A DNA stretch of 64,000 nucleotides from a virus (IMGVR_UViG_3300045988_137804:1-64000); one strand, 5' to 3'; positions 11,849-45,524 are shown, counted from the first letter of the stretch. The notes: generated by a model not told the origin, from the letters alone. Program-made: numbers and translations.

Positions 11849-11943
11849 TCACTTTTGAGCAATTCGCTCACAATTTCAAATCAAAATTGAATAGAGAATA
11901 TAAATTTAGAGGTTGCACAGCGTACCTTTGGTTTCTTGTAAAA

Positions 11944-11972
11944 TTGACACACTATATATAGTGTTTATAAAT
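11944..11972 (+). promoter_or_regulatory. sigma-A-type promoter with a palindromic operator in the spacer
   Basis: TTGACA (11944-49), 16-17 nt spacer, TATAAA/ATAAAT (11966-72). The spacer holds the perfect 16-bp palindrome ACACTATATATAGTGT (11949-11964) and precedes the highly expressed-looking gene at 12134. Confidence 0.55.
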
Positions 11973-12133
11973 AATATAAATACAATATATTGACATAAAA
12001 ACACCATAAAATCGCTGTTTCATATAGATTTTTGCATAAATTTATTTTTGTGTTCCGTCCGGTTGGGCGTTTAGATAGATTGTTTTATTAACAATATTTA
12101 CATAAATTTTTTATTTTTAAGGAGGATTTTCTG

Positions 12134-13162: not shown

Positions 13163-13217
13163 AAACCAATCTGCAACTAACGAAGTGATTATTTTTAAAA
13201 TTTAGGAGGAATTACAC

Positions 13218-14384: not shown

Positions 14385-14448
14385 ACTAAATTTATAAAAA
14401 CGTTACGCCAGTATATTTTTATATGCTGGTGTAACTATTGGAGAAAAA

Positions 14449-15135
14449 ATGGCTAGAAGTAAAAAATACAAATGCGGATATTGTAAAAATGAAATAAATT
14501 TAGAAAAAGAAGATGAGCAATCATATTTTTTTATAGTAGACGAAAAAAGAAATACTAGAAAATGTTTTCATTGTGATTGTTTTGTAGAACATCAGACTTC
14601 AAAAAAGAAAAAACCATTAACTGTCGATGAATGTATTGAAAAAATTGACCAATATAGAACATTGGAAAAACAGTACGAAGATAAAATCCAAAAAAGTGAA
14701 AATCCAAGAAATCAATTGTTTGAATATGTAATGGACATGTATGATTTAACTTTTGTGCCATCATATTTTTATGTAAGAATGAGCGAAGTTTTTAATGGTA
14801 GTTACAAAGGACTTAGCAAGCCAGTTCCACCGGAAGACTTATTGGACATGTGGCAACAAAAAAGAAATTTTCTTTTACAGAATGCGGAAAAACAAAGAAA
14901 ACGTGACAAGAATATAGATGGTATTTCAAGAGTATGGTATGACATGTCTATTTTGCTTTCCAGATACGATGCGTATTTAGATTGGAAAGAAAAACAAAAA
15001 TTAGCAATGATTGATATAGAAGAAAAGAAGAAAGAAAGCATTGACTTTGTTAAATACAATGACATTGTTAAAAATTCAAATACAAAGAAAGAGAATAATG
15101 CAATAGATATCAATTCAATGCTTGATGAAATTTAA
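14449..15135 (+). CDS. hypothetical protein upstream of the helicase (possible initiator or loader)
   Basis: Call rests on position only. N-terminal CGYC...CFHC cysteine pairs. Confidence 0.3.
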   Translation: MARSKKYKCGYCKNEINLEKEDEQSYFFIVDEKRNTRKCFHCDCFVEHQTSKKKKPLTVDECIEKIDQYRTLEKQYEDKIQKSENPRNQLFEYVMDMYDLTFVPSYFYVRMSEVFNGSYKGLSKPVPPEDLLDMWQQKRNFLLQNAEKQRKRDKNIDGISRVWYDMSILLSRYDAYLDWKEKQKLAMIDIEEKKKESIDFVKYNDIVKNSNTKKENNAIDINSMLDEI

Positions 15136-15150
15136 AGGCAGGTGTTTTCA

Positions 15151-16671: not shown

Positions 16672-16688
16672 AGGAAGTGGTGGTTTAA

Positions 16689-17711
16689 TTGGATATCGAA
16701 TCTCTCAAAGAAAATATACTAGAAAATGATTTAATACCAGTAGTTTTAGAAGAAGTTGGATGTCATCATATCAAACATAGAGATGGGTTTTATCAATGTG
16801 CAAATCCAGATGGTGATAACACAACAGCGGTTTGTGTGTATGAAAATACCAATTTAACCACCATTAATTATACAAGAGATATAACAAACGGAAGAAAAGG
16901 TTCTGATTTAATCTCTTTAGTTGAATTTTATAAGAACGAAACATTTCCACATGCAATCAAATGGATTTGTGATGTTCTTGATATAGATTACTATTCTAAT
17001 CCAGAAGATGAACTTCCAGAAAGTCTTAAATTGACGAAAATGTTGTTAGATTTACAGGAAAATGACAATGTGGAAGAAGAGGAAAAACCATTAAAACCAA
17101 TCTCTGAAAGAATTCTTTCCTATTATAAGCCTTATGTAAATGACATGTTTCTTGAAGATAATGTTGATTACGATACACAGTCAGAATTTGAGATTGGATA
17201 TGATGAAGAAAGTAACAGAATAACAATTCCTATAAGAGATGATTTGGGAAATTTAGTTGGTGTAAAAGCAAGGTATTTTTATAGAGAAGTGCCAGAAGAT
17301 ACTATGAAATTTATCTATCTTGAAAAATGTGCAAGGTCACAAATCTTATACGGTCTGTATAAAACAATCAATTTTATAAAACAGAAAAAAAGAGTATTTG
17401 TTGTAGAAGCAGAAAAGGGTGTTCAGCAATTATGGAATGCTGGATATCAAGAAGCTGTTGCAACTGGTGGAAAAAAGATAACGCAATGTCAAATTAATAA
17501 ACTAACAAGACTTTGTGTTCCGATCATTTTTGTTTTTGACAAGGATGTTGAAAAAGAAGAATTGGATTCTATAGCAAAGCGTTTTATAGACGAAGTTGAG
17601 ATTTATGCATTGATAGATAAAGATGGAATTTTATCTAAGAAAGAATCACCGACAGATAATATAGAAAAATTTGAACAATTATTAAATAAGAATATTTATA
17701 AATTACGATAG
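16689..17711 (+). CDS. DNA primase (zinc-binding N-terminus plus Toprim)
   Basis: CHHIKHRDGFYQCANPDGDN zinc-finger-like region. Toprim-like VFVVEAEKGVQQLW ... FVFDKD. TTG start with an AAGGAAGTGG RBS. Confidence 0.65.
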   Translation: MDIESLKENILENDLIPVVLEEVGCHHIKHRDGFYQCANPDGDNTTAVCVYENTNLTTINYTRDITNGRKGSDLISLVEFYKNETFPHAIKWICDVLDIDYYSNPEDELPESLKLTKMLLDLQENDNVEEEEKPLKPISERILSYYKPYVNDMFLEDNVDYDTQSEFEIGYDEESNRITIPIRDDLGNLVGVKARYFYREVPEDTMKFIYLEKCARSQILYGLYKTINFIKQKKRVFVVEAEKGVQQLWNAGYQEAVATGGKKITQCQINKLTRLCVPIIFVFDKDVEKEELDSIAKRFIDEVEIYALIDKDGILSKKESPTDNIEKFEQLLNKNIYKLR

Positions 17712-17718
17712 GAGTGAT

Positions 17719-19446
17719 TTGTTGAAATATAGATTAATCAAAGACTCATTAAACGATGAGTACAACGTACAAAAAACGATCCTACTAAATCGTGGTGTAG
17801 AAAATTGGAAAGAATATTTAAACATAGACGAATCATGTATTAACGACTATTCGATGCTCGACAATATTCACGAAGCAGTTTTATGTTATATATCACATTT
17901 AGACAGAGGGTCAAAAATTCATGTAATTGTAGATCCTGATGTTGATGGCTTTTGTTCTGCCAGCGAGATTATAAGATATACAAAAAAGATAAATTCTGAA
18001 GCAAATATAACATATTCATTGCATACGCAAAAACAGCATGGAATTTCTGAAGATATTACAATTCCAGAAGATATAGATTTATTAATTGTACCAGACGCAG
18101 GAAGTAATGATGTAATTCAATGTAAGGAATTGAATGAAAACGGAATTGACGTTATCGTTTTAGATCATCATATTTGTGATAAAAAGAATCCGTATGCAAT
18201 TGTTGTAAATAATCAGATGTGCGATTATCCAAACAAAAACTTTTGTGGTGGCGGTATTGTATATAAGTTCTTAAAAGCTGTAGATGATGAGCTTTGGGAG
18301 AATTACGCAGATGATTTTCTTGATATGGTAGCACTGTCAAACATTAGTGATGTAATGGACATGAGAGAATTTGAGACAAGATATTATGTCAATACAGGAT
18401 TAAACAAGATTAGAAGTAAGGTTTTTAAAGCACTTATTGATAAGCAATCATACTCAATGAAAGATGTTGTGAACATTATTTCTGTGCAATTTTACGTAAC
18501 ACCAATCTTAAATGCAATGATTAGAGTTGGTAATCAGGATGACAAAGACTTATTATTCAGAGCGTTTATTGAAACTGATGAAGTGTTTAAGTATAAAAAA
18601 CGTGGTGCTACAGAAGAAACGGATGAAGATATTTACACAAGAGCAGCAAGACTTTGTTATAACGCTAAAAATAGACAGGGAAAAGAAGTGTCTAAAAGCG
18701 TTGATGAAATTGATAATATTATAAAACAGAACGAGTTATATAAGAACAAAGCAATTTTTGTCAATGTCTCTAATGTTCTTAGCCAAACATTGACTGGTCT
18801 TGTAGCAATGAAAATTGCAGATAAATATAATAAACCATGCTTATTATTACGAAGACAGAAGTTACGTGATGATGGTGGAATGTTCTATGGTGGTTCTTGC
18901 AGAAACTTTGATCATAGTCCAATTGGCAGTCTAAAGAATGAACTTGATAGCACCAATCTATTTGAGTTTGTACAAGGTCATGATAATGCAGCAGGTTTTA
19001 GTATCAACAGAAACAATGTTGAAAAAGCAATTAGTAGAATAAATACAATGTGGAAAAACATTGATTTTACAGCATATTACGAAGTTGATTTTGACAAAGA
19101 TGTTAGTGAGATTGATATATCATTTGTAAAAGAAATTGATGATATAAAAGACTTGTTTGGACAAGGGATCAAAGAACCTTATGTTCATATATCAAATATT
19201 CCTGTTGTAAAAGAAGATACATTTGTTATGGGGAAAGAGTCAAATAGTTGGAAAGTCATTTACAATGATGAACTTGCATTTGTAAAGTTCTCAGTTGATA
19301 AAGAAAAAGATGCAATTATCAATAGTATGTTTTCTGATACGGACGGACTTCTTGGAACAATGGATGTTGTAGGAACAGTTAGTTTAAATAATTACAAAGG
19401 AATTTTAACACCACAAGTAATTGTAAAAGACTATGAATTTAAGTAG
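17719..19446 (+). CDS. DHH-family phosphoesterase / RecJ-like exonuclease
   Basis: DHH motifs VIVDPDVDG, VPDAGS and VLDHH. Confidence 0.7.
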   Translation: MLKYRLIKDSLNDEYNVQKTILLNRGVENWKEYLNIDESCINDYSMLDNIHEAVLCYISHLDRGSKIHVIVDPDVDGFCSASEIIRYTKKINSEANITYSLHTQKQHGISEDITIPEDIDLLIVPDAGSNDVIQCKELNENGIDVIVLDHHICDKKNPYAIVVNNQMCDYPNKNFCGGGIVYKFLKAVDDELWENYADDFLDMVALSNISDVMDMREFETRYYVNTGLNKIRSKVFKALIDKQSYSMKDVVNIISVQFYVTPILNAMIRVGNQDDKDLLFRAFIETDEVFKYKKRGATEETDEDIYTRAARLCYNAKNRQGKEVSKSVDEIDNIIKQNELYKNKAIFVNVSNVLSQTLTGLVAMKIADKYNKPCLLLRRQKLRDDGGMFYGGSCRNFDHSPIGSLKNELDSTNLFEFVQGHDNAAGFSINRNNVEKAISRINTMWKNIDFTAYYEVDFDKDVSEIDISFVKEIDDIKDLFGQGIKEPYVHISNIPVVKEDTFVMGKESNSWKVIYNDELAFVKFSVDKEKDAIINSMFSDTDGLLGTMDVVGTVSLNNYKGILTPQVIVKDYEFK

Positions 19447-19456
19447 GAGATAAAAT

Positions 19457-22400
19457 ATGGCTAGTTCATTACATAATCATAGTGAGTATTCAGTTTTGGA
19501 TGGATTTTCCCATCCTGAAGAATACTTAAAAAGAGCGCAAGAGATTGGACTACATGCTTTTGCCATTACGGAACACGGAAATGAATACAGTTGGATTTAT
19601 TTTGACAAGTTAAAAAGTAAGTATCCAGATGTGAAAATGATTTACGGAGTAGAACTTTACGAATGTTTTGATATAAAAGTGCAAGATCCAGACAATAAAT
19701 ACTTTCACTTGGTTGCACTTGCGAAGAATGAAAAAGGAAGAATTGCTTTAAACGAGATTGTTACAAAAAGTAATTTTGAAGGATTTTATTACAAGCCTAG
19801 AACAGATTTGAAAATGTTAAAACCATACGCAAAAGATTTAATCATTCTTTCTGCATGTTTGGCATCCAAAATTGCTCGTGAAAAAGACTTTGATAAATGC
19901 GTAGATTATATCAATGAATACAAAAGTATTTTTCCAAATTTCTTTCTTGAAATGCAAAGTCATAAAACAGAAGACCAATCTATTTACAATCAAAAAATTC
20001 TTAAATTATCAGAAGTAACAAATACACCATATACAATTACAACTGATTCTCATGCTGCCACAGAAGAAGATTTGTATTATCAAGCAAGACATGTTCAGAT
20101 TGCTCGTGATAATGAAACAATGACAGAACTATATGATGGTTGCTATGTACAATCAGAAAATGAAATTCATTCAATAATGGACAAACAAATCGGACATGAT
20201 AATGTGTCAAAAGGAATTGAAATGTCTGATTACATTGCTGATATGGTTGATGATGTAAGTATGCCATTTCAGTCTCCGCAGTTGCCTACATTTCCATTGC
20301 CTGATGGTTTTAAAGACAATTTTGAATACTTGAAATATCTTTGTGAAGATGGTTGGAAAACAAGAAAACTAGATGAATTGTCAGAAGAAGATAAAGAAAT
20401 AAGAAGAAAAAGACTTGATTATGAGCTTGGAATCATTCATCAAATGGGTTTTGACGGTTATTTCCTTATAGTTTGGGATTTTATAAAATGGTCAAAACAT
20501 AATGGCGTTTACGTAGGTGACGGAAGAGGAAGTGGCGGAGGATCTATTGTAGATTATCTGCTTGGAATTTCTCAGCTTGATCCAATTACATACAATCTGA
20601 TTTTTGAACGTTTTCTTAACCCAGAACGTGTATCTATGCCTGATATTGATACCGATTTCTCTGATAGAGAAAAAGTTGTTCAGTATCTAATGGATAAATA
20701 CGGTGCAGATAGGGTATGTCAGATTATCAACTTTTCTTATATCACTCCGGTTGTAGCGATTAAAGATGTTGGTCGTGTATTAAAGATTCCATATAAAATC
20801 TGTGACAAAATCAGCAAGAAGTTTACATATCCTACGTTTGAAGAATGCGTAGATAACAATCCATCATTGTATGAAGAATATGCAGACTACAAAGAACTAT
20901 TTGACATCGCAGGAAAAATAAGTGGAAGAGTTAGACAGACATCCGTTCATGCAGGTGGAGTTGGAATTGTAGATACAAAAGTTACAGATTACATGGCTAT
21001 GAAAGTTGGTAGCAAAGGTGAGCATGTAATTCAAGTAGACAAAAAGAACGTTGAAGAAATTGGAATTATTAAGTTTGACTGTTTGGGATTGGCAGATACA
21101 TTAAATACAATCAAATACGCTGTTGAATATGCAGGTATTGATGAATGGGAGATTGATGCAAATAATCCAGATTTCTTAAACAATAAGGAAATGTATGAAC
21201 TACTATGTTCAGCAAAAACAAATGGTGTGTTCCAAGTTGAATCACAGGGAATGAAAGACCTTCTATTAAGACTTCAACCATCAAATCTAGAAGATGTATC
21301 TGCTGTATTGGCTCTGTACAGACCTGACAGTATGGGTGCGTTGGATGAATATATTGAGTGCAAACACGGTAGAAAGACAGTTGAATATATGCATCCAGAT
21401 ATGAAACCAATTTTGGAAAGCACTTATGGTTGTATGATCTATCAAGAAGAAATGATGGATATAGTACGTATTTTTGGTGGAAGAACTTACGGTGGAGCAG
21501 ACAAGTTTCGTAAGGCTGTAGGCAAGAAGGATGTAAAGCTTATAAAAACAGAGTCTGAAAAAATATATAAAGAAATTATTGACTGTGGATATGGAGAAGA
21601 TATTGCAAAAGAAATTAGTGATTTTTTAGCAAGTAAGGGTAATTACCTCTTCAACAAAAGTCATTCCGCCCTGTACTCGCTTTTGACTCTTAAAACAGCA
21701 TATCTTAAAGCAAAATATCCAGTTGAATTCTTTTGTGCATTATTAAATCAAAAAAGAGATGATTATGGCGCATTGAACAAATATATTCTTGATGCAAAAG
21801 ACTTTGGAGTTGAACTTTTACCACCACATCTTAATCGTTCTGAACGTGGATTCAAAGTATTTAATGGCAAGATTTTGTTTGGTCTTGAAGCAATCAAGGG
21901 TGTTGGAGAAAAATTCGTAGATGCATTGATCGAAGAAAGAAATAAAAAACCATTTGAGAACTTTAAAGATTTCTACGAAAGAATGTCTCCGTCAGTGTCT
22001 ATTGTAGTATCACTTGCAAAGGCTGGTGCAATTCCATGTAAGGATAAGCGTCAATTATTAATTAATTTTGCAGCAGGTCAATATCAGAAAAAAGAATTTA
22101 CACCAGTAAAAACATTGCCAAAACTATCAATTCTTAAAGAAAAATATGGAATTGATGGTGGAGTTATCAAAGACAAAGAAGAGAGAATAAGATTATATAA
22201 CATAGAAAAAGAAAAAGAATTCAATAAATTGCAAAAAGAGAAGTTTGACAAGTCAATGCAGACGTTCTGTGACAAATACCTACAGAATGAAAACCTATGG
22301 GAATTTGAAGCATTATCTGTTTTTATTGACAAAAATCCATTTGTAGAAGCATACCAATATATTCAAAAAGATTTTGACGAAGTTGAAGATGGTGGAGATG

Positions 22401-32385: not shown

Positions 32386-35300
32386 ATGGTAAGAGTTATT
32401 AAAAGAGATTGCTCTGAAGTTGATTTTGATAAGAATAAAATTTCAACGGCAATCTTAAAGGCTATGAAAAATGGTAGCGGAATTGTTAAACCCAAAATTG
32501 CGGAATCTATTGCAGATGAGATTGAAAAGGAATGTAAGGATCGAGAAGAGATTGATATTTCTGAAATTGAAGCAATGGTATTTGACAAGCTGATTACCAA
32601 AAAACAGAGACTTACTGCAAGAGCATATGAAGGTTATAGAAGTACAAGAGAATTCCAGAGAGAGAATGAGAATACTGTTGACGAGGAAATTCTTGGAATT
32701 GTAGAAGCAAACAACGAAGAATGGAAAGATGAAAATGCGAATAAAAATCCAGCATTAAACCCTACAATTCGTGATTATATTGCTGGATCTGTAAGTAAAG
32801 ACGCAACAAAAAGATTTTTATTATCTCCAGAAATTATTCAGAGTCATTTAGAAGGAATTATTCATTTCCATGATTCAGATTACTTTATTCAACATATGCA
32901 TAACTGCGGATTAGTAAATCTTGAAGATATGCTTCAGAATGGTACTGTTATTAGTGAAACAATGATTGAAAAGCCACATAGTTTTTCTACAGCATGTACC
33001 GTGACTACTCAGATCATTGCTCAAGTTGCATCTAGTCAGTATGGTGGACAGAGTATCTCACTTGCACATCTGGCACCGTTTGTGGATGTTTCCAGAGAGA
33101 AGATCCGTAAGGAAGTGATCAGCGAGCAGGAACTGGTCGGAATGGAATATCCGGAAGATGTGCTCAATGAGATCGTAGAGAGAAGACTGAAAAAAGAGAT
33201 TACAAAAGGTGTTCAAACAATTCAGTACCAGTTAATCACACTTATGACAACAAATGGGCAAGCACCGTTCATCACAATTTTTATGTATCTGAATGAAGCA
33301 AAGAATGAGAGAGAAAAGAAAGACCTAGCGATGTTAATTGAAGAAATGTTACTTCAGAGAAAACTTGGTGTGAAAAATGAAGATGGTGTTTATATTGCAC
33401 CAGCATTTCCAAAACTCATTTATGTTCTTGAGGATGACAATTGTAACGAATCAACAGAATATTGGTATTTAACAGAACTTGCTGCCGAATGCACGTCAAA
33501 AAGATTAGTTCCAGATTACATCTCTGAAAAAGTAATGAAAGAACTTAAAGGTGATGTGTATACATGCATGGGATGTGTTGATGGAAAAGAACTTGTTACA
33601 TATACATATAACAATAATCTTTACGTTGAATCATTTGAAAGAATGTGGAATAGACTTTCTGATAGATTTGAAATAAAACATCAGTATAATGACAACAACC
33701 CAAATCTATATATGGATTTGAGCGATGTAGAAATCTATGACACAGACAAAGGATTTGTTAATACAGAGAGAATAATCAGAAATATATCAACCTCTTGGCT
33801 TGATGTTAATTTTTCCAACGGAAGAAGATTACTTTGTACAGAAGATCACCCACTTACATTAAGAGATGGAAGAACAATCCATGCATCTGAATTAAAATTA
33901 AAGGATAGAATTCTCATTAATTCACATCAGTATAATGAAGAAAATATTGTATTCAATGAAGACAAGGCGTGGTTGTTAGGTTTTATGCTTTGTGATGGAT
34001 GTTATCAAGGCTCTTTATTTTCTTCAATTGCAGCAGAAAATGAAGATGAAATTGCAGATAAGTTTTCAGAAACAATGAAGAAATATTTTGATCTCGATAT
34101 TGAAAAAAAATTACAGCAAAGAGGTAAGAAAGGAACATATTACGATTTGATTGCACATAGTCAGAATGAAAAAATATCTGTGTATTGTAATTATTTCGCT
34201 AAAAAATTCGAAGGTCTGAATAAGATTGATAGACATGTTCCTAATGAAGTATTTTCATGGAATTATTCGTCAAAACTTGCTTTCCTGGCAGGAATGATTG
34301 ATGCAGATGGGTACATTAATAGTTCTCAGAATAAAGGATTTTCTATAGTTCAAATTGGTTCTACAAACAAAGAACTTGCATTACAACAAATGGCACTTGC
34401 ACAGTCTTTAGGTATGCCAGCAAAGCTGTACCATAACCATTACAGTAAACGTAACCCAGAATTGATTAGATACAGAGTTGAGTTTTATCCAACAGATGAA
34501 CTAATTAATTATATTGTATGTAAAAAGAAATATGATAATTATATTGATTCAAATGTATCTAGTTATAATCATGAATCTGAAGTTACTGAAATCAACAAAA
34601 TTAATAAAAAAATGTTTTCTTACGATGTAACAACAACAAGTGAGCATTTTGAAATTAGCGGAATCTATAGTCATAATTGTAGGTCTTTTTTAACTGTTGA
34701 TAGATTTTCTGATAAAGTTGGAAACATTTCTAACGCTAAAAACTTTAATGGAAAACATAAATATTACGGAAGATTTAATCAGGGTGTTGTTACAATTAAT
34801 CTTCCAGATATTGCATTTTCATCTGATGGCGACATGGATAAGTTTTGGGGAATTTTCGAAGAAAGAACAGAATTATGCCATAAGGCTTTAAAGGCTAGAC
34901 ATAACCGTTTGCTTAAAACTTCTTCTGATATTGCACCAATCCTGTGGCAGAACGGAGCATATGCAAGACTTAAAAAACATGAACCAATTGACAAACTTTT
35001 ATTTGATGGATATTCAACGATTTCTCTTGGATATGCAGGACTTTATGAGTGTGTGAAATATATGACAGGAAAATCCCATACAGATGGTGATGTAGGAGAA
35101 AAGTTTGGATTGGAAGTAATGCAAGCATTAAATGATAAATGTAATCAGTGGAAAGAAGCTGAAAACATTGATTATAGTTTGTATGGCAGCCCAATCGAAA
35201 GCACTACGTATAAATTTGCAAAGTGCTTAAAAAATAGATTCGGTGATGATATTTTTATTAAACTTGATGGATTTGATAGAAATTATATTACAAATAGTTA

Positions 35301-35730
35301 TCACGTTCCTGTGTTTGAAAGAATTACAGCATTTGACAAATTTAAAATTGAATCAAAATTCCAAAACCTTAGTCCAGGAGGCGCAATTTCGTATTGTGAA
35401 ATCCCATCAATTAACGTAAATATTCCAGCATTATTGGAAGTAATTAAATTTATTTATGACAATATTATGTACGCAGAAATCAATACAAAAGATTGTTATT
35501 GCGAAGTGTGTGGATACGATGGAGACATTCCACTTATTGACGATGATAACGGTAAACTTGTATGGGAATGCCCTAATTGTGGCAACACAGATAATACAAA
35601 AATGGACATCGCATTTAGAGTTTGTGGTTATGTTGGTACTGCAAAAAATGGTGGAAACCAAGGAAGATATGGAGATATCCACGATAGAGTTTACCACATC
35701 GATGACTTTGAATACGAGGAAAATGAATAA
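32386..35730 (+). CDS. nrdD: anaerobic ribonucleoside-triphosphate reductase (class III), interrupted by an intein
   Basis: ATP-cone start VIKRDCSEVDFDKNKI, conserved MGC|RSFL site split by the intein, C-terminal zinc site CxxC...CPNC and glycyl-radical motif RVCGYVG. Confidence 0.9.
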   Translation: MVRVIKRDCSEVDFDKNKISTAILKAMKNGSGIVKPKIAESIADEIEKECKDREEIDISEIEAMVFDKLITKKQRLTARAYEGYRSTREFQRENENTVDEEILGIVEANNEEWKDENANKNPALNPTIRDYIAGSVSKDATKRFLLSPEIIQSHLEGIIHFHDSDYFIQHMHNCGLVNLEDMLQNGTVISETMIEKPHSFSTACTVTTQIIAQVASSQYGGQSISLAHLAPFVDVSREKIRKEVISEQELVGMEYPEDVLNEIVERRLKKEITKGVQTIQYQLITLMTTNGQAPFITIFMYLNEAKNEREKKDLAMLIEEMLLQRKLGVKNEDGVYIAPAFPKLIYVLEDDNCNESTEYWYLTELAAECTSKRLVPDYISEKVMKELKGDVYTCMGCVDGKELVTYTYNNNLYVESFERMWNRLSDRFEIKHQYNDNNPNLYMDLSDVEIYDTDKGFVNTERIIRNISTSWLDVNFSNGRRLLCTEDHPLTLRDGRTIHASELKLKDRILINSHQYNEENIVFNEDKAWLLGFMLCDGCYQGSLFSSIAAENEDEIADKFSETMKKYFDLDIEKKLQQRGKKGTYYDLIAHSQNEKISVYCNYFAKKFEGLNKIDRHVPNEVFSWNYSSKLAFLAGMIDADGYINSSQNKGFSIVQIGSTNKELALQQMALAQSLGMPAKLYHNHYSKRNPELIRYRVEFYPTDELINYIVCKKKYDNYIDSNVSSYNHESEVTEINKINKKMFSYDVTTTSEHFEISGIYSHNCRSFLTVDRFSDKVGNISNAKNFNGKHKYYGRFNQGVVTINLPDIAFSSDGDMDKFWGIFEERTELCHKALKARHNRLLKTSSDIAPILWQNGAYARLKKHEPIDKLLFDGYSTISLGYAGLYECVKYMTGKSHTDGDVGEKFGLEVMQALNDKCNQWKEAENIDYSLYGSPIESTTYKFAKCLKNRFGDDIFIKLDGFDRNYITNSYHVPVFERITAFDKFKIESKFQNLSPGGAISYCEIPSINVNIPALLEVIKFIYDNIMYAEINTKDCYCEVCGYDGDIPLIDDDNGKLVWECPNCGNTDNTKMDIAFRVCGYVGTAKNGGNQGRYGDIHDRVYHIDDFEYEENE
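33574..34677 (+). mobile_element. 368-aa intein with a LAGLIDADG homing endonuclease inside nrdD
   Basis: Starts at Cys (CVDGKELVT) right after YTCMG. Block B TEDHP. Two LAGLIDADG motifs (LLGFMLCDGC, LAGMIDADGYI). Ends ...IYSHN followed by the +1 Cys of CRSFL. Confidence 0.85.
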
Positions 35731-37371: not shown

Positions 37372-37719
37372 ATGAAACAATTAAAGTTGAGTAAAAAATG
37401 CAAGCATGAAGATTTAGTTGCGTATGGTTTCAGAAAACACGGACTGAATTATAAACTTTCAGTTCCATTATATACATATAAAAAGATTCCGGTTATTAGT
37501 GTAAGTTTTCTCGTTTCATGTCTTGATAATTATGTTGGTTATGATGTGATCGACAACAATTCTGACATGATTTACACAGCTTATTATGACACAAGTTTGT
37601 GCGGAGAGAATAAAGTATTAGAGAAAGTTAAACGAAAACTTGATGAAGTTTTTGAGGAAATGACTGAGAAAAATATTTTAAAAGGAGATAAAGAAGATGC
37701 AGAGAATTGCGAAATTTAG
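37372..37719 (+). CDS. hypothetical protein
   Basis: 115-aa ORF directly following the previous gene. Confidence 0.5.
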   Translation: MKQLKLSKKCKHEDLVAYGFRKHGLNYKLSVPLYTYKKIPVISVSFLVSCLDNYVGYDVIDNNSDMIYTAYYDTSLCGENKVLEKVKRKLDEVFEEMTEKNILKGDKEDAENCEI

Positions 37720-38203
37720 TAAAGTTAGTTTTGAACAGTTTAAAAAAGATTGGATTGATACATTTGGAGATGTAACAGAAGATAAGATTAAAGAGGTTTA
37801 TGATAACATTAAATTGCCAAAAAGAGCTACTGCAATGTCAGCAGGTCATGATATAAGCATTCCATTTGATACAAGTATTAAGAATGGCGAGGTTGTAAAA
37901 ATTCCTACCGGAATTCGATGCAAAATGGATGATGGATATGTAATGTTTGTGTTCCCCCGAAGTAGCATGGGAATTAAAAAAGGAATGGTAATTTGTAATA
38001 CTATTCCTGTAATTGATGGAGATTATTTTGGAGCAGATAACGAAGGTCATATCTTTATTTGTGTCACAAATACATACAAAAAATCAATAGAATTAAATTC
38101 TGGGGATAATATTGTACAGGCAGTTTTCACTAAATTTGGTGTAGCAGATGACGAAAAAATTACAGAAAAACGATTGGGAGGAGTTGGTAGCACTGGATTA
38201 TAA
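37697..38203 (+). CDS. dut: dUTP diphosphatase (trimeric dUTPase)
   Basis: Motifs SAGHDI, PRSSMGIKKG, IDGDYFG and RLGGVGSTG. Confidence 0.85.
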   Translation: MQRIAKFSKVSFEQFKKDWIDTFGDVTEDKIKEVYDNIKLPKRATAMSAGHDISIPFDTSIKNGEVVKIPTGIRCKMDDGYVMFVFPRSSMGIKKGMVICNTIPVIDGDYFGADNEGHIFICVTNTYKKSIELNSGDNIVQAVFTKFGVADDEKITEKRLGGVGSTGL

Positions 38204-38855
38204 ACCTATAGATTTTGACGAATCAAAAGAAGTATGGAAATTATGTGATGATTATCCTGGCAATTATATTAGTAATTATGGAAGAGTTAAAAGGGATTCT
38301 TATACATATCATTATAAAAATGGAAAAATAAAAAATTACAAGCCTATAATAAAAAAATTAACTGAAACTAGCAAAAGGAAAGGTACAATTCAAGGGTATT
38401 TATGTACTCGAATGATTGGTTCTGATGGAAATAGTAAATGTGAAATGGGTCATAGGCTTGTAGCAAAAGCTTTTATTCCTAACCCAAATAACCTACCTAC
38501 AGTAAATCATAAAAATGGCAATAAACATGATAACCGAGTAGAAAATTTAGAATGGACTTCTTATTCTGACAACAATCAACATGCATACGCAAATGGCTTA
38601 AAAGGCGATAATGTTATAATGCTACAAGTTGACCAAGATAATTATATCAAACAAATATATTTTTCTGAAGAATATGCAGCGTTATGTAATTGTTTATCTA
38701 CGAAAAACATTAGAAATAGTTCTGAGAAAAATACGTTAGATTATTATAATAATAAATGGATTAGATTTTATCCAAACAAATACAAAATTACAGTAGACGA
38801 CAACGCAACGGAAGTTCGCAATGGTGGTTTCGGATCTACAACAAAATCTAAATAA
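38148..38855 (+). mobile_element. HNH homing endonuclease (NUMOD4-like N-terminus plus HNH_3 core)
   Basis: WKLCDDYPGNYISNYGRVKR, then HRLVAKAFIPNP...VNHKNGNKHDNRVENLEW. The ATG overlaps the dut 3' end by 56 nt, so the start is uncertain. Confidence 0.8.
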
Positions 38856-38871
38856 ACACATGTAATAATTA

Positions 38872-38899
38872 TTGACAGGAATGCATAGTGTGGTAAAAT
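38872..38899 (+). promoter_or_regulatory. near-consensus sigma-A promoter (TTGACA, 16 nt, TGnTAAAAT)
   Basis: TTGACA at 38872-77, extended -10 TGGTAAAAT at 38891-99. The 10-bp inverted repeat AGGAATGCAT / ATGCATTCCT (38877-86 / 38911-20) straddles it. Confidence 0.65.
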
Positions 38900-38905
38900 G
38901 ATACT

Positions 38906-39240
38906 AACAAATGCATTCCTCTATGTCCCTATGCAATCCAAATTTGCATTTTTTCATCAAAATTGTGTAAATTATTTTTGCACTTTTGTCGAGCGTCAAA
39001 TAAACGAAATAGTTTACAAAATAGACATAGAAGGTAGTGTTTTTGGGAAAATCTAAGAAAATGGTTTTAGTACCCAATTTTTGCTCTATGTCGAGTTCGA
39101 AAAATGGCTTAAAATAAGGCTTTTTTGAGGGTCAAAATCCTAATGAAATACCAATTTCATTCGAACTCAAAATCCACATTAAAAAGTAAAAATAAAGGGT
39201 ACTAGACTTAGCAAATTGCTGGTTTAGTACCCTTTTATAA
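38906..39240 (+). ncRNA. putative ~330-nt structured leader or non-coding RNA (promoter to terminator)
   Basis: No credible ORF. Bounded by the promoter at 38872 and the terminator at 39194-39240. Several strong helices and repeated GGTTT(T)AGTACCC segments. Confidence 0.4.
39194..39240 (+). terminator. intrinsic terminator (long hairpin plus T-tract)
   Basis: AAAGGGTACTA (39194-204) pairs perfectly with TAGTACCCTTT (39225-35). The helix extends through most of the intervening 20 nt. Followed by TTTTAT. Confidence 0.6.
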
Positions 39241-39299
39241 AACGCAAAAATTATTTGCCCCAAAAGTGCAAAATTAGATTACACAATGACATAGAGAAT

Positions 39300-39442
39300 T
39301 TCCCAAAAACGATTTTTGGGAAGAAGATGAAAATGCCGATAAAGCCCGTGGTTGACACGTTTTCTCTTTCCCAAAAATTTTCCCAAAAATGAAGAAAAAG
39401 TTCCCAAAAACGATTTTTGGGGAAAATAGCCATTTTTGGGAA
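39300..39442. promoter_or_regulatory. array of TTCCCAAAAA sites including two 23-bp palindromes
   Basis: TTCCCAAAAA-CGA-TTTTTGGGAA at 39300-22 and 39401-23 (one mismatch). Half-sites at 39368, 39380 and 39433, plus 39040. They flank a TTGACA at 39352-57 upstream of the tns operon. Confidence 0.6.
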
Positions 39443-39518
39443 GCTTTATTCTTACACATGAATGCATTTGTTATTCATCAAAAACTGTATAAACATACAG
39501 ATGAAAGGAGCAAATGCT

Positions 39519-39863
39519 ATGCAGAAAAAGAATTACAAAGGTCGCTGCGAGAAATTAACAGTGCCAAAATCTAAGGATGTCTGCCATATCTATAATGACA
39601 TCCAAAAGTCTTATCTATTACAACTTCAGGACGATCCAAACATCAAAGAGATAAAATGTAATGTCCTTATGCTTGGATTGGAACTTGGAGAATTCACATC
39701 TGATTTTCAGTGTGTTACAGCAGACAACAATCTAATAGTGCGTGAATGTATCTCACGAGATGCTATCGCCAAACCAATGACAGCAAAACGATTAGATGCT
39801 TCAAGAGAGTATTGGTTTCGTCATGGCATAACAGATTGGGGGATTGTAACCGATGAAAAATAA
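39519..39863 (+). CDS. tnsA: short TnsA-like protein (endonuclease N-terminal-domain-like, 114 aa)
   Basis: AAAGGAG RBS. LQDDPNIKEI...GEFTSDFQCV...LIVRECIS...REYWFRHGITDWGIVTDE resembles the TnsA core (..YTPDF.V....EVK....E.yW...g..w.ivte). The expected E and K positions do not look conserved. Confidence 0.45.
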   Translation: MQKKNYKGRCEKLTVPKSKDVCHIYNDIQKSYLLQLQDDPNIKEIKCNVLMLGLELGEFTSDFQCVTADNNLIVRECISRDAIAKPMTAKRLDASREYWFRHGITDWGIVTDEK

Positions 39864-41661
39864 GAGTCTATTTTATAATCCAAAAACCAAAGAAATATTT
39901 CGTGTGTTAGACAGTAAAGGTTCAAAAGTTCTTATCATTAATTGCACAAAGAAACAGATGCCTTATTGGACAGAATTCGATTCAATTTCTTCCTGTCGTT
40001 TAATCACAGAAGATGAATTACAGGACATGACTGGCACACATTTTCAAGAACTAACTGTACCATCAAAAGAATACAGATATGTTCAAGAAAGGTTTTCACT
40101 GATTTCAAATATCATTCCTATCATCGGAAATAAAAGCAAGCGTACTCAGATGATACGAATCATATCTGAAACAAATAATTGCAGTAAACAAACAATCAAA
40201 AACATCTTGTGCCAGTATCTCATCTATCAAAATATTTCTGCATTAGCACCGCAAAAGAGCAATGAAAAAGAACTAACAACAGATGAGAAAAACATGCGTT
40301 GGGCATTAAATAAGTTCTTCTATACAAAGAATAAGAATTCATTATCAACCGCTTACGTCATGATGCTTAAAGAAAAATATACAGATGAATACAACAACTT
40401 ATTACCACACCCAACCATTCATCAGTTCCGTTATTTCTATCGCAAAACAAAAAAGATGGAAACGTATTATATCTCAAGAGATGGCATAAAAGATTACCAA
40501 AGAAATCACAGACCATTGCTAGGAGAAGGAATTAGAACAGTTGCAAATAGCATTGGAACAGCTATGTTGGATTATACAATCTGTGATATTTATCTCGTAA
40601 ACGATAAACAAGAATTAATTGGTCGTCCATTAATGACAGCTTGCATTGATGTCTACAGCGGATTGTGTTGTGGTTACTCATTAACATGGGAAGGTGGAAT
40701 GTACAGTTTGCGTTCTTTGATGTTAAATGTGGTCACTAATAAGAAAGAACATTGTAGAAAGTTTGGAATAAATATCGAAGAATCCGACTGGAATTGTCAT
40801 CAATTACCTGCAACATTAATCACAGATAAAGGTTCAGAATATGCGTCAGAAAACTTTGAACAACTTACAGATTTAGGAGTGTCTATTATAAATCTACCAG
40901 CCTATAGACCAGAGTTAAAAGGATCAGTTGAAAAGTTTTTTGATATGATTCAATCACTTTATAAGCCACAGTTACTAGGAAAAGGTGTCATAGAATCTGA
41001 TTTCCAGGAACGTGGCTCACATGATTATAGAAGAGATGCTTGTCTAACATTAGAACAATTTGAAAAAATAATTCTTCGTTGCATCATCTATTATAATACA
41101 CAGAGAATTATCAAAAATTCACCACTGATTGAACAAAATATTCCGCCACATTCTTGTGACATATGGAACTATTATTTGACCTATAATGATGACTTTTTGA
41201 TAAGAATATCGCCACAGAATCTACTTTTATGTTTGCTACCAAGAACGAAAGGAGTGTTTAAAAGAAATGGTTTAAACGTCAATAGTCTCCGCTATAAGCA
41301 TAAAACATACACCGAAATGTATCTTGTAGGAGGAGATGTAACAGTAGCCTACAATCCAGAAGATGTTTCTTACATTTGGCTCATTGAAGAAAATGGAACG
41401 TATGTAAAATTTGAATTAATCAATTCTCAGTTCTATGGAAAGGATTTATCATTTGTAGAAAAATATATGGAGTCATCTAAGAAGCTAATTGCAGAAAATA
41501 CCGATGATAATTTACGAGCAAAAGTTACGCTTTCAAAAGATATAGATTTTGTAATTTCTGAAAGTGTACGTTCTAATGTAAGCACAAAAAATATCCGCAA
41601 GAATCGTCAGAAAGAACAGGAACTTACTCATAGAGATTTCGTAAAGGAGTATGAATTATGA
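39853..41661 (+). CDS. tnsB: TnsB/MuA-family DDE transposase
   Basis: DDE candidates in MLDYTICDIYLV, LITDKGSEYAS and RPELKGSVEKFF. 602 aa. Overlaps tnsA-like by 11 nt. Confidence 0.8.
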   Translation: MKNKSLFYNPKTKEIFRVLDSKGSKVLIINCTKKQMPYWTEFDSISSCRLITEDELQDMTGTHFQELTVPSKEYRYVQERFSLISNIIPIIGNKSKRTQMIRIISETNNCSKQTIKNILCQYLIYQNISALAPQKSNEKELTTDEKNMRWALNKFFYTKNKNSLSTAYVMMLKEKYTDEYNNLLPHPTIHQFRYFYRKTKKMETYYISRDGIKDYQRNHRPLLGEGIRTVANSIGTAMLDYTICDIYLVNDKQELIGRPLMTACIDVYSGLCCGYSLTWEGGMYSLRSLMLNVVTNKKEHCRKFGINIEESDWNCHQLPATLITDKGSEYASENFEQLTDLGVSIINLPAYRPELKGSVEKFFDMIQSLYKPQLLGKGVIESDFQERGSHDYRRDACLTLEQFEKIILRCIIYYNTQRIIKNSPLIEQNIPPHSCDIWNYYLTYNDDFLIRISPQNLLLCLLPRTKGVFKRNGLNVNSLRYKHKTYTEMYLVGGDVTVAYNPEDVSYIWLIEENGTYVKFELINSQFYGKDLSFVEKYMESSKKLIAENTDDNLRAKVTLSKDIDFVISESVRSNVSTKNIRKNRQKEQELTHRDFVKEYEL

Positions 41662-42917
41662 TTAATATGAATAAAGTAATCAAAGAACTTCCTGATATGC
41701 TGTCCGGAAATGAACTTCAGAAAGCAATGTCTATTATTCCAAAATACGACAAACAGATTCAGGAAGATGGAAGTATGACCGAAAGACTTTTGAAATTATC
41801 TGACCTTTATAGCATTTATATTCCATCACAAATGTCTACTGAAATTTATAGCAAACTATATCTTGGAATCATTCGTTCTATGCAGAAAAAAGGAAACAAG
41901 TTAACTGTACAACAATTCAATTCAACTTATAGAACGATGCAGAATATTAAGAATAAAACTGGCAATCAGCAATATGATGGAATCATAGGTGGATCAGATT
42001 CATTTACAATTATTGGTGCAAGTGGGATAGGAAAATCATCAGCTATTTCTCGTGCATTGAATCTGATTGAAGCAAATCATGTAATAGAAATTGAACAGCC
42101 TTACACTAAAATACTTCCATGCTTAACAGTGCAATGTCCATTCGATTCTTCTGTAAAAGGATTATTACTTGAAATTCTTCGCAAAGTTGATGAGCAGTTA
42201 GGAACAGATTATGCACAAACAAAAAGGTTCACGACTGATATGCTTATAGGTGCTGTTAGTCAGGTGTGTTTAAATCATATTGGCTTGCTTGTTGTAGACG
42301 AAATACAGAACGTAGTTAATTCAAAGAACGGCAAGAACTTAATCGGATCATTGACGCAGCTAATCAACAATTCAGGCATTAGCATCTGCATGGTTGGAAC
42401 ACCAGATAGTGAAATATTCTTTGAACAGGCTATGCAATTAGCTCGTAGAAGTGTCGGATTAAAATACACAGCTTTGCCATACGATGAACATTTTTGCGAA
42501 GTATGTGAATGCTTATTTTCTTACCAATATGTAAAAAATATCACATATATAAATAGCACGACTATAGAATGGTTGTATCAACACAGTGCAGGAGTTATCT
42601 CTATTGTTGTATCATTAATTCATGATGCACAAGAGATTGCAATCTTAAATGGGAGAGAAGTATTAGATATTAAATCGTTAGACGAAGCATACAACAATAG
42701 ACTTTCTATGTTGCACGATTATATTAGACCTACTATGAGAAAGAAATCTATCGGCAATAATAAAATAAAGAAACAAAATATCATTACAACTTTGTCGATA
42801 AAAAATAGCGCAGATATTCAAACAGATTTAATACAAAGTCTTGCGAAAGAATGTAAGAAAGATGGAACAGATATTGTAGAAATACTGAGTCAACATATTA
42901 CAATTGAGGTGATTTAA
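41658..42917 (+). CDS. tnsC: TnsC/TniB-type AAA+ transposition ATPase
   Basis: Walker A IIGASGIGKSSAI, Walker B LLVVDEIQN. ATGA overlap with tnsB. Confidence 0.8.
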   Translation: MINMNKVIKELPDMLSGNELQKAMSIIPKYDKQIQEDGSMTERLLKLSDLYSIYIPSQMSTEIYSKLYLGIIRSMQKKGNKLTVQQFNSTYRTMQNIKNKTGNQQYDGIIGGSDSFTIIGASGIGKSSAISRALNLIEANHVIEIEQPYTKILPCLTVQCPFDSSVKGLLLEILRKVDEQLGTDYAQTKRFTTDMLIGAVSQVCLNHIGLLVVDEIQNVVNSKNGKNLIGSLTQLINNSGISICMVGTPDSEIFFEQAMQLARRSVGLKYTALPYDEHFCEVCECLFSYQYVKNITYINSTTIEWLYQHSAGVISIVVSLIHDAQEIAILNGREVLDIKSLDEAYNNRLSMLHDYIRPTMRKKSIGNNKIKKQNIITTLSIKNSADIQTDLIQSLAKECKKDGTDIVEILSQHITIEVI

Positions 42918-44318
42918 ATGATTGGATTTATGCCTAAATTATATCCAGATGAATTAGTGTATAGTTGGATTGCTAGGTATCATGTAAGAACTGGACATTA
43001 TAGTTATCAGCAAACAGCAAAACATCTACTAGATAAGAAAGCAAATATTGTCTCGAAAAAGTTTTTAAACGAATACTCAAATGAATTTTTTAACATCATC
43101 AAAAAGAATATTCCAATAAAAGAGTTAGTAATAAATCATAGTATGCTGTCAGCTTATATTAAATTTTTGCCAAAAGATAAGCGCAATAATCTAATAGAAT
43201 CCTATGAAAACAATTTAAGATATAAAGAGTCATCAATTGGATTTAAGACAAGAAGTAATGGTATTAGTATGCGATATTGTCCTATATGTGTAAAGGAAGA
43301 TCGAGAAAAATATGGAGAAACTTACTGGCACAGAGAACATCAATTTGTTGGAATTAATGTATGCACAAAGCATAAATGTTATCTTATAGATTCCAAAATG
43401 TCTGTAAAAAGTATTGATAAGTCTGAGTTTTATACCGCAGAATATGTCATAGAACAACATGATGATGTTAAGATTTCCAATAATGAGTATGAGATAAAGT
43501 TTGCCAAGTATTTTACAGAAGTCATAAATACAGAGTCAAATAATGACTCAAATATTGTGGAATATCTCAATACTATATTATTGAACTCAAAGTATAGAGC
43601 AAATGGATGTATGCTAAAAGATTTTAATAAATTGTACGATGATTATTCTGAATTATGCGAAAAGATTAATGTAAATATAATTTCTTCACAACCATCGTTA
43701 AGAGAGATATTAAAAAATAAACGCAGAACATTGGATATTTGTATCCTTGGAATGCTATTGAATATTTCGCCTTACGATCTCGTGAATAGAGTATTGCCAA
43801 ATACAAACAAAGAGGATATCAGAGAGCAAGTCATATTTTTAAGAGATGTAAAAAAGATGAGTTATAATCGTATTGCAAAAGAATTAAACGCAAGTAGAAG
43901 AGCAGTTGGTACAATATATCATAGTAAAAAAACTGAAAATGATTTAGATGTTCTTAAACTTCTTAAAGATGAACTGCCAAAATTCTATAATGGAGATTTA
44001 ACTAATGGAAGACCGCAAAAAATAACAGTATACACAGTTGAAAAACAATTTGATATTCCACAAAAAGTATTAATAAATAATAAATCCTATTATAACGAAA
44101 TAATCAAGTATGAAGAGTCTTATCCTGAATATTGGGCGAGAGAATTAGTATGGTCTTATAATAAACTAAAGGAAGATAAAGCATATATAAGTCAAAATAA
44201 AATAACCAAACAAATAAATATTCGTAAGGAGCAACCTGTAAAAGCTATACCATACATCTCTAAATATACAGACAAAGAAACTGCTGAAGCTATTAAATCA
44301 TTATTGCAAAAATCGTAA
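42918..44318 (+). CDS. tniQ: TniQ/TnsD-family target-selection protein with C-terminal HTH
   Basis: N-terminal LYPDELVYSWIARYHVRTGH, zinc module RYCPICVKED...HREHQFVGINVCTKHKCYL, and a later HTH-like MSYNRIAKELNASRRAVGTIY. Starts immediately after the tnsC stop. Confidence 0.8.
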   Translation: MIGFMPKLYPDELVYSWIARYHVRTGHYSYQQTAKHLLDKKANIVSKKFLNEYSNEFFNIIKKNIPIKELVINHSMLSAYIKFLPKDKRNNLIESYENNLRYKESSIGFKTRSNGISMRYCPICVKEDREKYGETYWHREHQFVGINVCTKHKCYLIDSKMSVKSIDKSEFYTAEYVIEQHDDVKISNNEYEIKFAKYFTEVINTESNNDSNIVEYLNTILLNSKYRANGCMLKDFNKLYDDYSELCEKINVNIISSQPSLREILKNKRRTLDICILGMLLNISPYDLVNRVLPNTNKEDIREQVIFLRDVKKMSYNRIAKELNASRRAVGTIYHSKKTENDLDVLKLLKDELPKFYNGDLTNGRPQKITVYTVEKQFDIPQKVLINNKSYYNEIIKYEESYPEYWARELVWSYNKLKEDKAYISQNKITKQINIRKEQPVKAIPYISKYTDKETAEAIKSLLQKS

Positions 44319-44324
44319 AAAAAT

Positions 44325-44360
44325 GGGGAATAGAAGAGTATTAAATCTCAACTATTCCCC
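44325..44360. terminator. hairpin terminator shared by convergent tniQ and the endolysin gene
   Basis: GGGGAATAG (44325-33) / CTATTCCCC (44352-60). The T-tract (ATTTTTTT) is on the minus-strand side, so it fits best as the endolysin terminator. Confidence 0.6.
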
Positions 44361-44378
44361 ATAATTAATTATAGAAAA

Positions 44379-45524
44379 TTATTTTAAAGCACCGCTTGAA
44401 TTAAAGCTATATTCTTTTCCACCTATTTTAATTATTTCATTACAAGCCATTGATCCATCATCTTTAAGATAATATTTTGTGCCTTTATCTGTAACCCAAT
44501 GATTTCTCATCATTGCTCCGACTGGGATACAATCCTTATCTTTATTATACCAATACCATTTATTATTTTTTTTTAACCAACCAGTTACCATTGAACATCC
44601 TGGAAATCCAGAGACTTCTCCACTTGATACAAAATAATAATCATTTGTCCCATCATTATATTCGCCTAAAACTGCTGAACCAGTTTGATGATTTTTACCT
44701 CCACTTGTTCTCAATAGATACCAAAAACCATCAATTTTTCTCCAACCCGTAACCATCGCACCGATTGCATAATATGGCGTATTAGATTCACTTAAATAAT
44801 ACCAGTCGCCATTATCACAAAGCCAACCAGTTTTCATACTGCAATCATCATTAAAATAATACCAATGTCCATTTATTGATTCCCATTTATTATTTATAGC
44901 ATAACCATTTTTGTCAAAGTAGTACCAAACGTTATCTAGACATTTCCACTGTTCCTTTGGGTATGATTCGTCATCATTTCTATACCACCAGCCAATATTG
45001 TCTTTTTTCCAACCAACAGATATTTTATTAGTAATATCTTTCTTGAACTGATTCCAAATAGAAGAGTCACAACCGTTTGCACCCCAACCTGTCCAACCTG
45101 GACAAGACTTAGAGCATACATCCCAATGACGAACAACATGAGCTGCATCGATGTTATATTTCTTCATAAGTGTTTTAGTAAGTTCAACTGTATTTCTATA
45201 TGTTCCATCAGAAATCTTTCCGTCTGTAGAACACATTTCGATGCTAATTGAATTACTATTCGTACATTTTCCAAATAAGTTATTTGAACCGTAATTTCTT
45301 CCAACAGCCCAAGCCGTGTCACTATCGGAAACTACCTGTACTACGTTCTCTGTATCAACGAAATAATGAGCAGATGCACCACGGTTAGTACTTTTAAAGT
45401 AGTTGCCGTTGTTCACAGATTTGTCCCACCAATTTCCTGTGTAGTGAATTACAATATACTTTCTTCCGTTATTACCTTTTGTGTAATTAACTTTAGTAAG
45501 GTTTTGAATAAGTTTGTAAGCCAT
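44379..45524 (-). CDS. endolysin: N-acetylmuramoyl-L-alanine amidase (Amidase_2/PGRP-like) plus cell-wall-binding repeats
   Basis: IVIHYTGN...ASAHYFVD...AWAVG...SISIEMC amidase core. The C-terminal half holds about 6 GW..(x)..WYYF/WYYL repeats. Confidence 0.85.
   Translation of the reverse strand: MAYKLIQNLTKVNYTKGNNGRKYIVIHYTGNWWDKSVNNGNYFKSTNRGASAHYFVDTENVVQVVSDSDTAWAVGRNYGSNNLFGKCTNSNSISIEMCSTDGKISDGTYRNTVELTKTLMKKYNIDAAHVVRHWDVCSKSCPGWTGWGANGCDSSIWNQFKKDITNKISVGWKKDNIGWWYRNDDESYPKEQWKCLDNVWYYFDKNGYAINNKWESINGHWYYFNDDCSMKTGWLCDNGDWYYLSESNTPYYAIGAMVTGWRKIDGFWYLLRTSGGKNHQTGSAVLGEYNDGTNDYYFVSSGEVSGFPGCSMVTGWLKKNNKWYWYNKDKDCIPVGAMMRNHWVTDKGTKYYLKDDGSMACNEIIKIGGKEYSFNSSGALK

Follow-up and report, generated by a model that had tools for sequence, protein, structure and literature searches.

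To our knowledge, control of tns gene expression is understood only in Tn7 and in a few CRISPR-associated relatives that have separate regulators. In phage Mu, both the repressor and the N-terminal domain of MuA bind an internal activation sequence. At the right end of Tn7, TnsB sites of 22 bp tile near-contiguously with overlaps of 1-2 nt, about 20-21 bp apart (PMC9308760). The innermost of them, site 4, overlaps the tnsAB promoter, which is blocked when TnsB occupies this site (Arciszewska et al. 1991, cited in PMC9308760). CRISPR-associated Tn7-like transposons carry dedicated regulators, for example the MerR-type CvkR (PMC9938897). The DNA analysed here is a stretch of 64,000 nucleotides of viral DNA (IMGVR_UViG_3300045988_137804; hereafter the window) in which an array of short repeats precedes a tnsA-tnsB-tnsC-tniQ operon. 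Nothing specific was found in the searchable literature on this family, its mini-TnsA, its duplicated end modules, the guaA attachment site or phage-borne Tn7-like copies; large surveys of Tn7-like elements probably include the family without comment.

Repeat array and tns operon of the window

The 64-kb window holds seven exact copies of TTCCCAAAAA where 0.49 are expected, all of them within positions 39040-39442 (Table 1), and this number was reached in none of 100 shuffles of the window. The preliminary description had listed eight copies; all were found again at their positions, seven exact and one with a single mismatch. The motif density elsewhere, on which that description had made its proposal depend, is at chance level, with 14 one-mismatch copies found in the rest of the window and 12.3 expected. 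The observation of TTCCCAAAAA repeats is real, and their occurrence is far from random. A TTGACA (39352-57) lies within the array, as had been noted, and the distance from its end at 39442 to the ATG of the tnsA-like gene is 76 nt (about 75 in the earlier count).

Table 1. Features of the tns locus, with positions counted from the first nucleotide of the window
Feature	Position	Strand	Remarks
Sigma-70-like promoter, strong	38872..38899	+	TTGACA-16-TAAAAT with TG extension; 11/12 matches
Right-end module of Tn7-like element	38924..39291	+	inverted/direct repeats; architecture as in bacterial relatives
TnsB-site-like repeats, ~25 bp	38924-49, 38962-88, 39239-56, 39261-91	+, +, -, -	
Isolated TTTTTGGGAA copy within end module	39040..39049	-	
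Intrinsic terminator hairpin in module	39196..39240	+	RNAfold -24.7 kcal/mol, then UUUUAU
TTCCCAAAAA, exact copies	39300, 39368, 39380, 39401	+	sequence reading, 38700-39700
TTCCCAAAAA, exact copies	39040, 39313, 39433	-	sequence reading
TTCCCAAAAA, eighth copy	39414-23/39415-24	-	one mismatch
Array proper, seven motif copies	39300..39442	both	family consensus tTTTTGGGAAa
Palindrome 1	39300-39322		perfect, TTCCCAAAAA-CGA-TTTTTGGGAA
Conserved box GATAAAGCCCGTGGTTGACAC	39336..39357	+	includes TTGACA; between site 1 and direct sites
Direct sites in array	39368-77, 39380-89	+	
Palindrome 2	39401-39423/4		one extra G
Reverse site closing array	39433-42	-	
tnsA leader, conserved	39460..39493	+	GAATGCATTTGTTATTCATC then TGTATAAA; TATAAA at 39488-93
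Mini-TnsA, 114 aa	39519..39863	+	nuclease core only, without C-terminal domain; ribosome-binding site AGGAG 39506-10
TnsB transposase	39853..41661	+	DDE type, Mu-transposase C-terminal domain
TnsC/TniB AAA+ ATPase	41658..42917	+	Pfam TniB/AAA_22
TniQ/TnsD-like target selector	42918..44318	+	Pfam TniQ
Hairpin between tniQ and convergent lysin gene	44325..44368		GGGGAATAG...CTATTCCCC

The genes downstream of the array were confirmed as tnsA-like, tnsB, tnsC and tniQ. A sequence profile of the 114-aa first product has no match in the PDB; its AlphaFold2 model (pLDDT 94.8) was matched by Foldseek to the catalytic domain of Tn7 TnsA (1t0f/1f1z; E 8e-7, TM 0.82). D62, E76 and R75 are invariant across 43 homologs, whose ExK motif is without its canonical Lys in this protein. 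According to the model, this first gene has a TnsA nuclease fold and is not a regulator; the ORF had been considered as a hidden repressor, a candidate ruled out by the fold match. The TnsB profile aligns to Tn7 TnsB (7pik; E 3.7e-57) over residues 9-592 with identical domain order, and its DNA-binding domains are an SH3/HTH DBD1 and a winged-helix DBD2, as in Tn7 TnsB (PMC9308760). Conservation of DBD2 (mean 0.81) is about that of the catalytic core (0.83). Genes for a heteromeric transposase, with a TnsA-like subunit whose activity is predicted from the fold model and a DDE-type TnsB, are combined in one operon with a TnsC/TniB AAA+ regulator and a TniQ/TnsD protein, which identifies the element as Tn7-like. 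Between tniQ and the convergent lysin gene there is just a 60-bp hairpin, and no end-like repeats were found at 44325-44368.

TniQ has diverged much faster than its operon partners. Between the window protein and that of the sister phage L005 (9206-10417), identity is 37% and confined to residues 1-306; the C-termini are unrelated, and the one of L005 is shorter. Identity to the TniQ of bacterial carriers is 26-36%. The corresponding ranges are 50-77% for TnsC and 55-79% for TnsB, the values between the window and L005 being 77% and 79%, respectively. This pattern suggests that the target selector was swapped between sister phages.

The right-end module has outer TGTC... and inner, inverted ...GACA termini and is 368 bp long in the window. 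Homology between the phage element and the bacterial element L095 starts exactly at the TGTC at 38924, where contig L097 also begins. The terminal repeats of the window are TGTCCCTATGCAATCCAAATTTGCAT and TGTGTAAATTATTTTTGCAC, and terminal-type repeats of the phage element are TGTCCCTATGCAATCC and GTGCAAAATTAGATTACACA; the array motif TTTTTGGGAA is an unrelated sequence. A position-weight matrix built from ten terminal sites retrieved only the four module sites of Table 1 and nothing comparable elsewhere in the window. An inverted repeat at 38964/39266 was considered as a separate miniature element, an assignment ruled out by complete bacterial elements, in which it is the family's standard end module.

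The terminator within the module is directed towards tnsA and would shield the tns operon from transcription that arrives from upstream. What lies upstream of it is a highly expressed host gene in the relatives and, in the phage, the near-consensus promoter at 38872-99, which belongs to phage DNA left of the transposon terminus, outside the element, and is conserved in L005. A strong terminator at this place implies that the tns operon is transcribed or controlled from the 230 bp between terminator and ATG, which is where the array is found. As far as sequence can tell, the array sits in the control region of the tns operon. The likely tns promoter of the earlier description was not recovered: a scan of 39300-39520 on the + strand gave no hit, and no acceptable -10 follows the TTGACA. 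A consensus-like sigma-70 promoter is present in the 260 bp before tnsA in 12 of 66 relatives, overlapping a site in three of them, and is missing from the window and the other 54; with so few promoters and overlaps in three relatives only, promoter occlusion is unproven. An Rfam search of 38800-39600 gave sub-threshold matches only.

Two further segments of this region are conserved. The GATAAAGCCCGTGGTTGACAC box is near-identical in the window, the sister phages L005 and L091 and the bacterial L095, and diverges more in L098. Its TTGACA is conserved in the phage-like subgroup only, and similarly placed boxes were seen by eye in distant relatives (AACCGCATAAATAAAGG in L014; close variants in L007, L010 and L025). 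The tnsA leader is kept in all five aligned phage-like elements, including L095, and pairs with 38899-38918 as a 21-nt inverted repeat. The motif [G/T]AATGCAT(TTGTTA) occurs at 38879-38886, 38905-38918 and 39460-39473. Outside the element its copies flank the -10 of the phage promoter, and inside the element it returns in the tnsA leader. Outer and inner copies together form a 14-21-nt inverted repeat that brackets module and array. At the variable position, the three window copies all have G and the three of L005 all have T.

Related elements and the phage copy

TnsB homologues number in the thousands. Three groups of relatives were compared. Two are the sister phages L005 and L091 (TnsB 76-79% identical) and a bacterial element (L095-L098; 74%); the third, with TnsB at 50-60%, comprises 80 bacterial loci from Lachnospiraceae, Oscillospiraceae, Ruminococcus and Negativicutes, plus L007 and L010. 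The non-redundant set used for counting has 66 loci from gut Clostridia, Negativicutes and sister phages, with TnsB 50-100% identical. All carriers have only tnsA, tnsB, tnsC and tniQ in common. The bacterial elements, whose cargo includes Rep, ArdC and relaxase genes, have the habits of ordinary Tn7-like transposons: they lie just downstream of guaA, ppdK or an ABC permease gene with the tnsA side always nearest, and insertion is thus orientation-specific.

The strict core of the motif (the 8-mer TCCC[AC]AAA / TTT[TG]GGGA) occurs at 10.66/kb in the 455 bp before tnsA versus 0.092/kb in the remaining 1.1 Mb of the 66 loci. At least two sites are present in 60 of the 66 loci, mostly 3-8 and up to 13, clustered between -210 and -30 relative to the tnsA ATG. 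Most loci below this threshold have looser forms of the motif (TTTTGGGG, for instance). Cores of variant sequence, among them TTCGGGGA, occur in L025 and L086, and in L078 and L084, also below the strict threshold, the upstream sequence is different. No cluster other than upstream of tnsA was found in any of the loci scanned (L001-L090 and the window). Two clusters occur only in L007-L009, three copies of the L007 element, and both are upstream of tnsA. From its sequence conservation, the array is shown to be a family-conserved, position-specific cluster in about 60 independent relatives, and the proposal that the repeats are a non-random cis-element tied to the tns operon holds both against shuffles of the window and across the 66 relatives.

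In the family consensus tTTTTGGGAAa the flanks are uninformative, which points to a recognised unit of 10-11 bp, the size of the site of one DNA-binding domain. The sites are alike in orientation in 72% of cases (GGGAA strand equal to the coding strand), and sites in the same orientation are most often 12-13 or 20-22 bp apart. For inverted pairs the distance is 16-17 bp in the phage-like group versus 26-28 bp elsewhere. The arrays of L011 and L014 are made of 11-13 near-direct repeats that reach the ribosome-binding site, and L014 has 13 sites in one orientation and one in the other. In five elements with TnsB 73-79% identical, the segment between inner terminus and ATG matches almost base for base, with half-sites preserved and palindrome spacers that vary (CGA in the window versus TCCTG or TTTGCA in the relatives). 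Given this mix of orientations, the spacing differences and the near-direct arrays, the dyad symmetry is, at the level of motif arrangement, a local trait of the phage-like subgroup and is not conserved family-wide.

A deletion is found in L074, which lost (at about 9330-9660) the inner half of the module together with the entire TTTTTGGGAA array and kept tnsA and its leader. Its tns genes are intact, and this natural deletion could serve for a functional comparison.

Modules measure ~250-370 bp in the family (~245-250 bp in bacterial copies), and a hairpin followed by a T-run equivalent to the terminator of the window is present in those of L044, L079, L056 and L095. Three complete bacterial elements (L044, L056 and L060) have a module at both ends, in direct orientation and 94-100% identical, and are flanked by 5-bp target duplications (ATAAA in L056, AGGGT in L060 and the inexact ATTTT/ATTTC in L044). 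Their TTTTTGGGAA array is found solely between the tnsA-proximal module and tnsA and is absent from the far end; with a module at both ends and the array at the tnsA side alone, the array is internal and asymmetric to the ends. It shows neither the inverted repetition at both ends nor the sequence kinship to the TGT-terminus repeats that end sites have, and the earlier idea that the repeats are TnsB-type end-binding sites was abandoned, the terminal repeats (38924-39291) being different and the far end of these three relatives being without array. By eye, the repeats of about a dozen termini seem to differ by lineage (GGGCAAT...TTTATCC, ATGCAAT...TTTGCAT, CACxCxTCATTATCC). Elements L044 and L056 span 9192-19612 and 9247-21367 of their loci, respectively. 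Many metagenome contigs break within the module, which suggests that it is multi-copy; module recombination might leave solo copies, or the module might move alone as a miniature element.

The window belongs to the genome of a large virulent-type phage from gut metagenomes, with genes for DNA polymerase, DnaB, RecJ, ligase, NrdD/NrdG, dUTPase, tRNAs, tail proteins and a choline-binding lysin; the exact TnsB protein is encoded on contigs of 160 kb and >200 kb. The element occupies one shared place in three phage lineages, the interval between the dUTPase region and the lysin gene, where its genes are intact (tnsABC-tniQ intact across lineages, TnsB 74-96% identical). It starts 68 bp past the stop codon of an HNH-endonuclease ORF (38148-38855) that overlaps the dUTPase gene (37697-38203), itself complete with its own motif V. 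This ORF ends in a second dUTPase C-terminus (VRNGGFGSTTKSK), 67% identical to that of the sister phage; it looks like insertion of the homing endonuclease duplicated the 3' end of the dUTPase gene. Elsewhere in the window, the 1114-aa NrdD (32386-35730) contains intein and LAGLIDADG homing-endonuclease domains (Pfam), and a RAGATH-27 RNA scoring 80 bits, above the gathering score, adjoins four tRNA genes (Met, Gln, Leu and one without assigned type; 9335-10438).

The window has one end module only (38924-39291). A second module or terminal repeat was not found in the 64 kb (BLAST with word size 7, weight matrix), a far end was absent within 10 kb downstream in the sister phages and in lysin-anchored contigs, and no empty-site variant was seen among these phages and contigs. 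Either the far end of the phage copy is more than 25 kb away, with phage genes as cargo, or the copy is one-ended. A search of phage and plasmid collections for DNA near-identical to 38800-44400 gave no match; TnsB searches by tblastn gave no match in phages and just Tn7-type matches of 26-28% identity in plasmids. Scans of IMG/VR found no TnsB relatives, 23-mer palindrome or inner-terminus pattern, and a scan of JGI metagenomes found no inner-terminus pattern.

Proposed function of the array and candidate binding proteins

Our best explanation, held with moderate confidence, is that the array is an element-controlled cluster of regulatory sites for the tnsA-tnsB-tnsC-tniQ operon. From its place just inside the right-end module, downstream of the terminator and in what would be the promoter/leader region, it could be occupied cooperatively by an element-encoded protein that determines how strongly the tns genes are expressed. 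Such control would amount to autoregulation, like that by TnsB at site 4 of the Tn7 right end, and might act by repression or by activation. No repressor gene is adjacent, as the preliminary description had observed: the genes shared by carriers are tnsA, tnsB, tnsC and tniQ, and the first has the nuclease fold.

By elimination, TnsB is the candidate binder, a tentative assignment. TnsC is a non-specific AAA+ DNA binder, and TnsB is favoured as the sole conserved sequence-specific DNA binder among the four shared genes; the 20-22-bp spacing peak is also close to the near-contiguous tiling of Tn7 TnsB sites. Against TnsB, the motif is near-invariant while the terminal repeats are lineage-variable by eye, without co-variation, and it is not obvious how one domain would read both. 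The bipartite terminal sites already call for both of its DNA-binding domains, and the 12-13-bp spacing peak does not fit TnsB tiling. Of the earlier proposals on the binder, TnsB is thus kept as the most plausible candidate, with Tn7 autoregulation as the closest precedent, and TniQ is not. Binding by the C-terminal HTH of TniQ had been proposed, and residues 297-335 of the window protein do have a weak Sigma70_r4_2/HTH_23 match. However, L005 has the same array and an unrelated, shorter C-terminus beyond residues 1-306 (37% identity), without that region, and the TniQ of bacterial carriers is only 26-36% identical; with identities of 25-37% overall, TniQ is a most improbable binder.

It is unlikely, though it deserves weight, that the array consists of accessory transposase sites, acting as an enhancer or an identity element of the right end, in the manner of the Mu internal activation sequence, or as extra TnsB sites that strengthen target immunity, with or without a role in transcription. 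Such a role would make sense because the two end modules are near-identical direct copies. With modules 94-100% identical, the array is the main cis feature near one end alone, and its side adjoins the target gene (guaA, ppdK or ABC permease) in all insertions. Head-to-tail spacing of 20-22 bp is common, and motif copies extend into the modules: single-mismatch copies, which may be chance occurrences, were seen there by eye (TTTTCGGAA in L044, TTTTAGGGAA in L056, TTTTTAGGAA in L079), and the copy at 39040 in the window is exact. Yet the modules are asymmetric and direct, so that the outer termini differ without any array; the number of sites varies from 2 to 13, and L074 has intact tns genes and no array. 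Some sites reach or overlap the ribosome-binding site, which suggests expression control.

The phage copies bring in a more doubtful reading, in which the phage has retained a one-ended Tn7-type system whose machinery is domesticated or acts in trans and whose array is a new internal control or enhancer element. The sole phage module is bounded by both terminus types (TGTC...GACA). During infection the machinery could then mobilise this 368-bp module with its terminator as a mini-element, or else elements resident in the host, and the array would be the switch by which TnsB, a host factor or a phage factor times this activity.

Regulation from outside the element is improbable in the form of a host transcription factor or nucleoid protein of Clostridia and Negativicutes that would bind TTTTTGGGAA and couple tns expression to host physiology. 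The invariance of the motif while all element proteins diverge would fit such a factor, as would the absence of a dedicated regulator gene. But across the 1.1 Mb outside the array, mostly host DNA, the 8-mer has a density of 0.092/kb, versus ~0.065/kb expected by chance from our estimate of base composition, and a rate near chance outside the array gives no sign of a regulon. The carriers, moreover, comprise two bacterial classes and a virulent-type phage. We know of no Firmicute regulator with this box.

Action at the RNA level is rated lower still, as very improbable: leader hairpins, or repeated UUUUUGGGAA bound by a GGA-binding protein or the ribosome, would control translation or termination. 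As RNA, each palindrome gives a hairpin with 10 bp and a folding energy of -9.5 to -10.2 kcal/mol, GGGAA lies on the coding strand in 72% of sites, and some sites overlap the ribosome-binding site; against this, the orientation mix and the pairing partners vary (13 versus 1 in L014), the stems are AT-rich and no Rfam family was matched at threshold.

Hardly tenable is a dimeric repressor of the classical type, with its gene elsewhere in the phage, that would bind both 23-bp palindromes and loop the 100 bp between them: the palindromes are near-identical, 101 bp apart and conserved in the phage-like subgroup, but the array also occurs in bacterial transposons whose only genes in common with the phage are tnsABC-tniQ, and the palindromic arrangement varies across the family. 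The looping repressor of the preliminary description does not survive as a family feature, with 72% of sites in one orientation, lineage-dependent spacing and neither fixed dyad spacing nor a linked repressor gene.

Comparison with described systems

Regulatory sites that form a separate, near-invariant motif class would be a new form of a known type of control, here in an abundant family of gut Clostridia. The identity of the binder would reveal how the family sets its transposase level, and also if transposases of the Tn7 type are able, like MuA, to recognise sites of a second class. The phage context raises the question of why a large virulent-type phage keeps an intact Tn7-type machine with one visible end.

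The Tn7 right end is similar in having a cluster of short repeats between the terminus and tnsA, a tnsA-first operon reading inward, the transposase as the likely binder and a common head-to-tail spacing of ~20-22 bp. It differs in that the regulatory site of Tn7 is one of four end sites, with the same 22-bp sequence as at the left end, whereas the present array is built from a distinct 10-11-bp motif, follows a complete module and terminator, is found at one end only and reaches 13 copies. Systems of the CvkR type also control tns genes from sites upstream of the operon, but the present element is without a regulator gene. Plasmid iterons are likewise arrays of direct repeats with a period of ~21 bp; unlike iterons, the array is not accompanied by a conserved Rep gene, and its position is fixed to tnsA and not to an origin. 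The operator/enhancer of phage Mu is, like the array, an internal cluster near one end of a DDE/AAA+ module, distinct in sequence from the ends and placed in the early promoter region. In contrast to Mu, TnsB has no extra N-terminal domain comparable to MuA I-alpha, and a repressor gene is absent here. By analogy, with a putative enhancer role, the arrangement resembles the Mu operator/enhancer more than the right end of Tn7.
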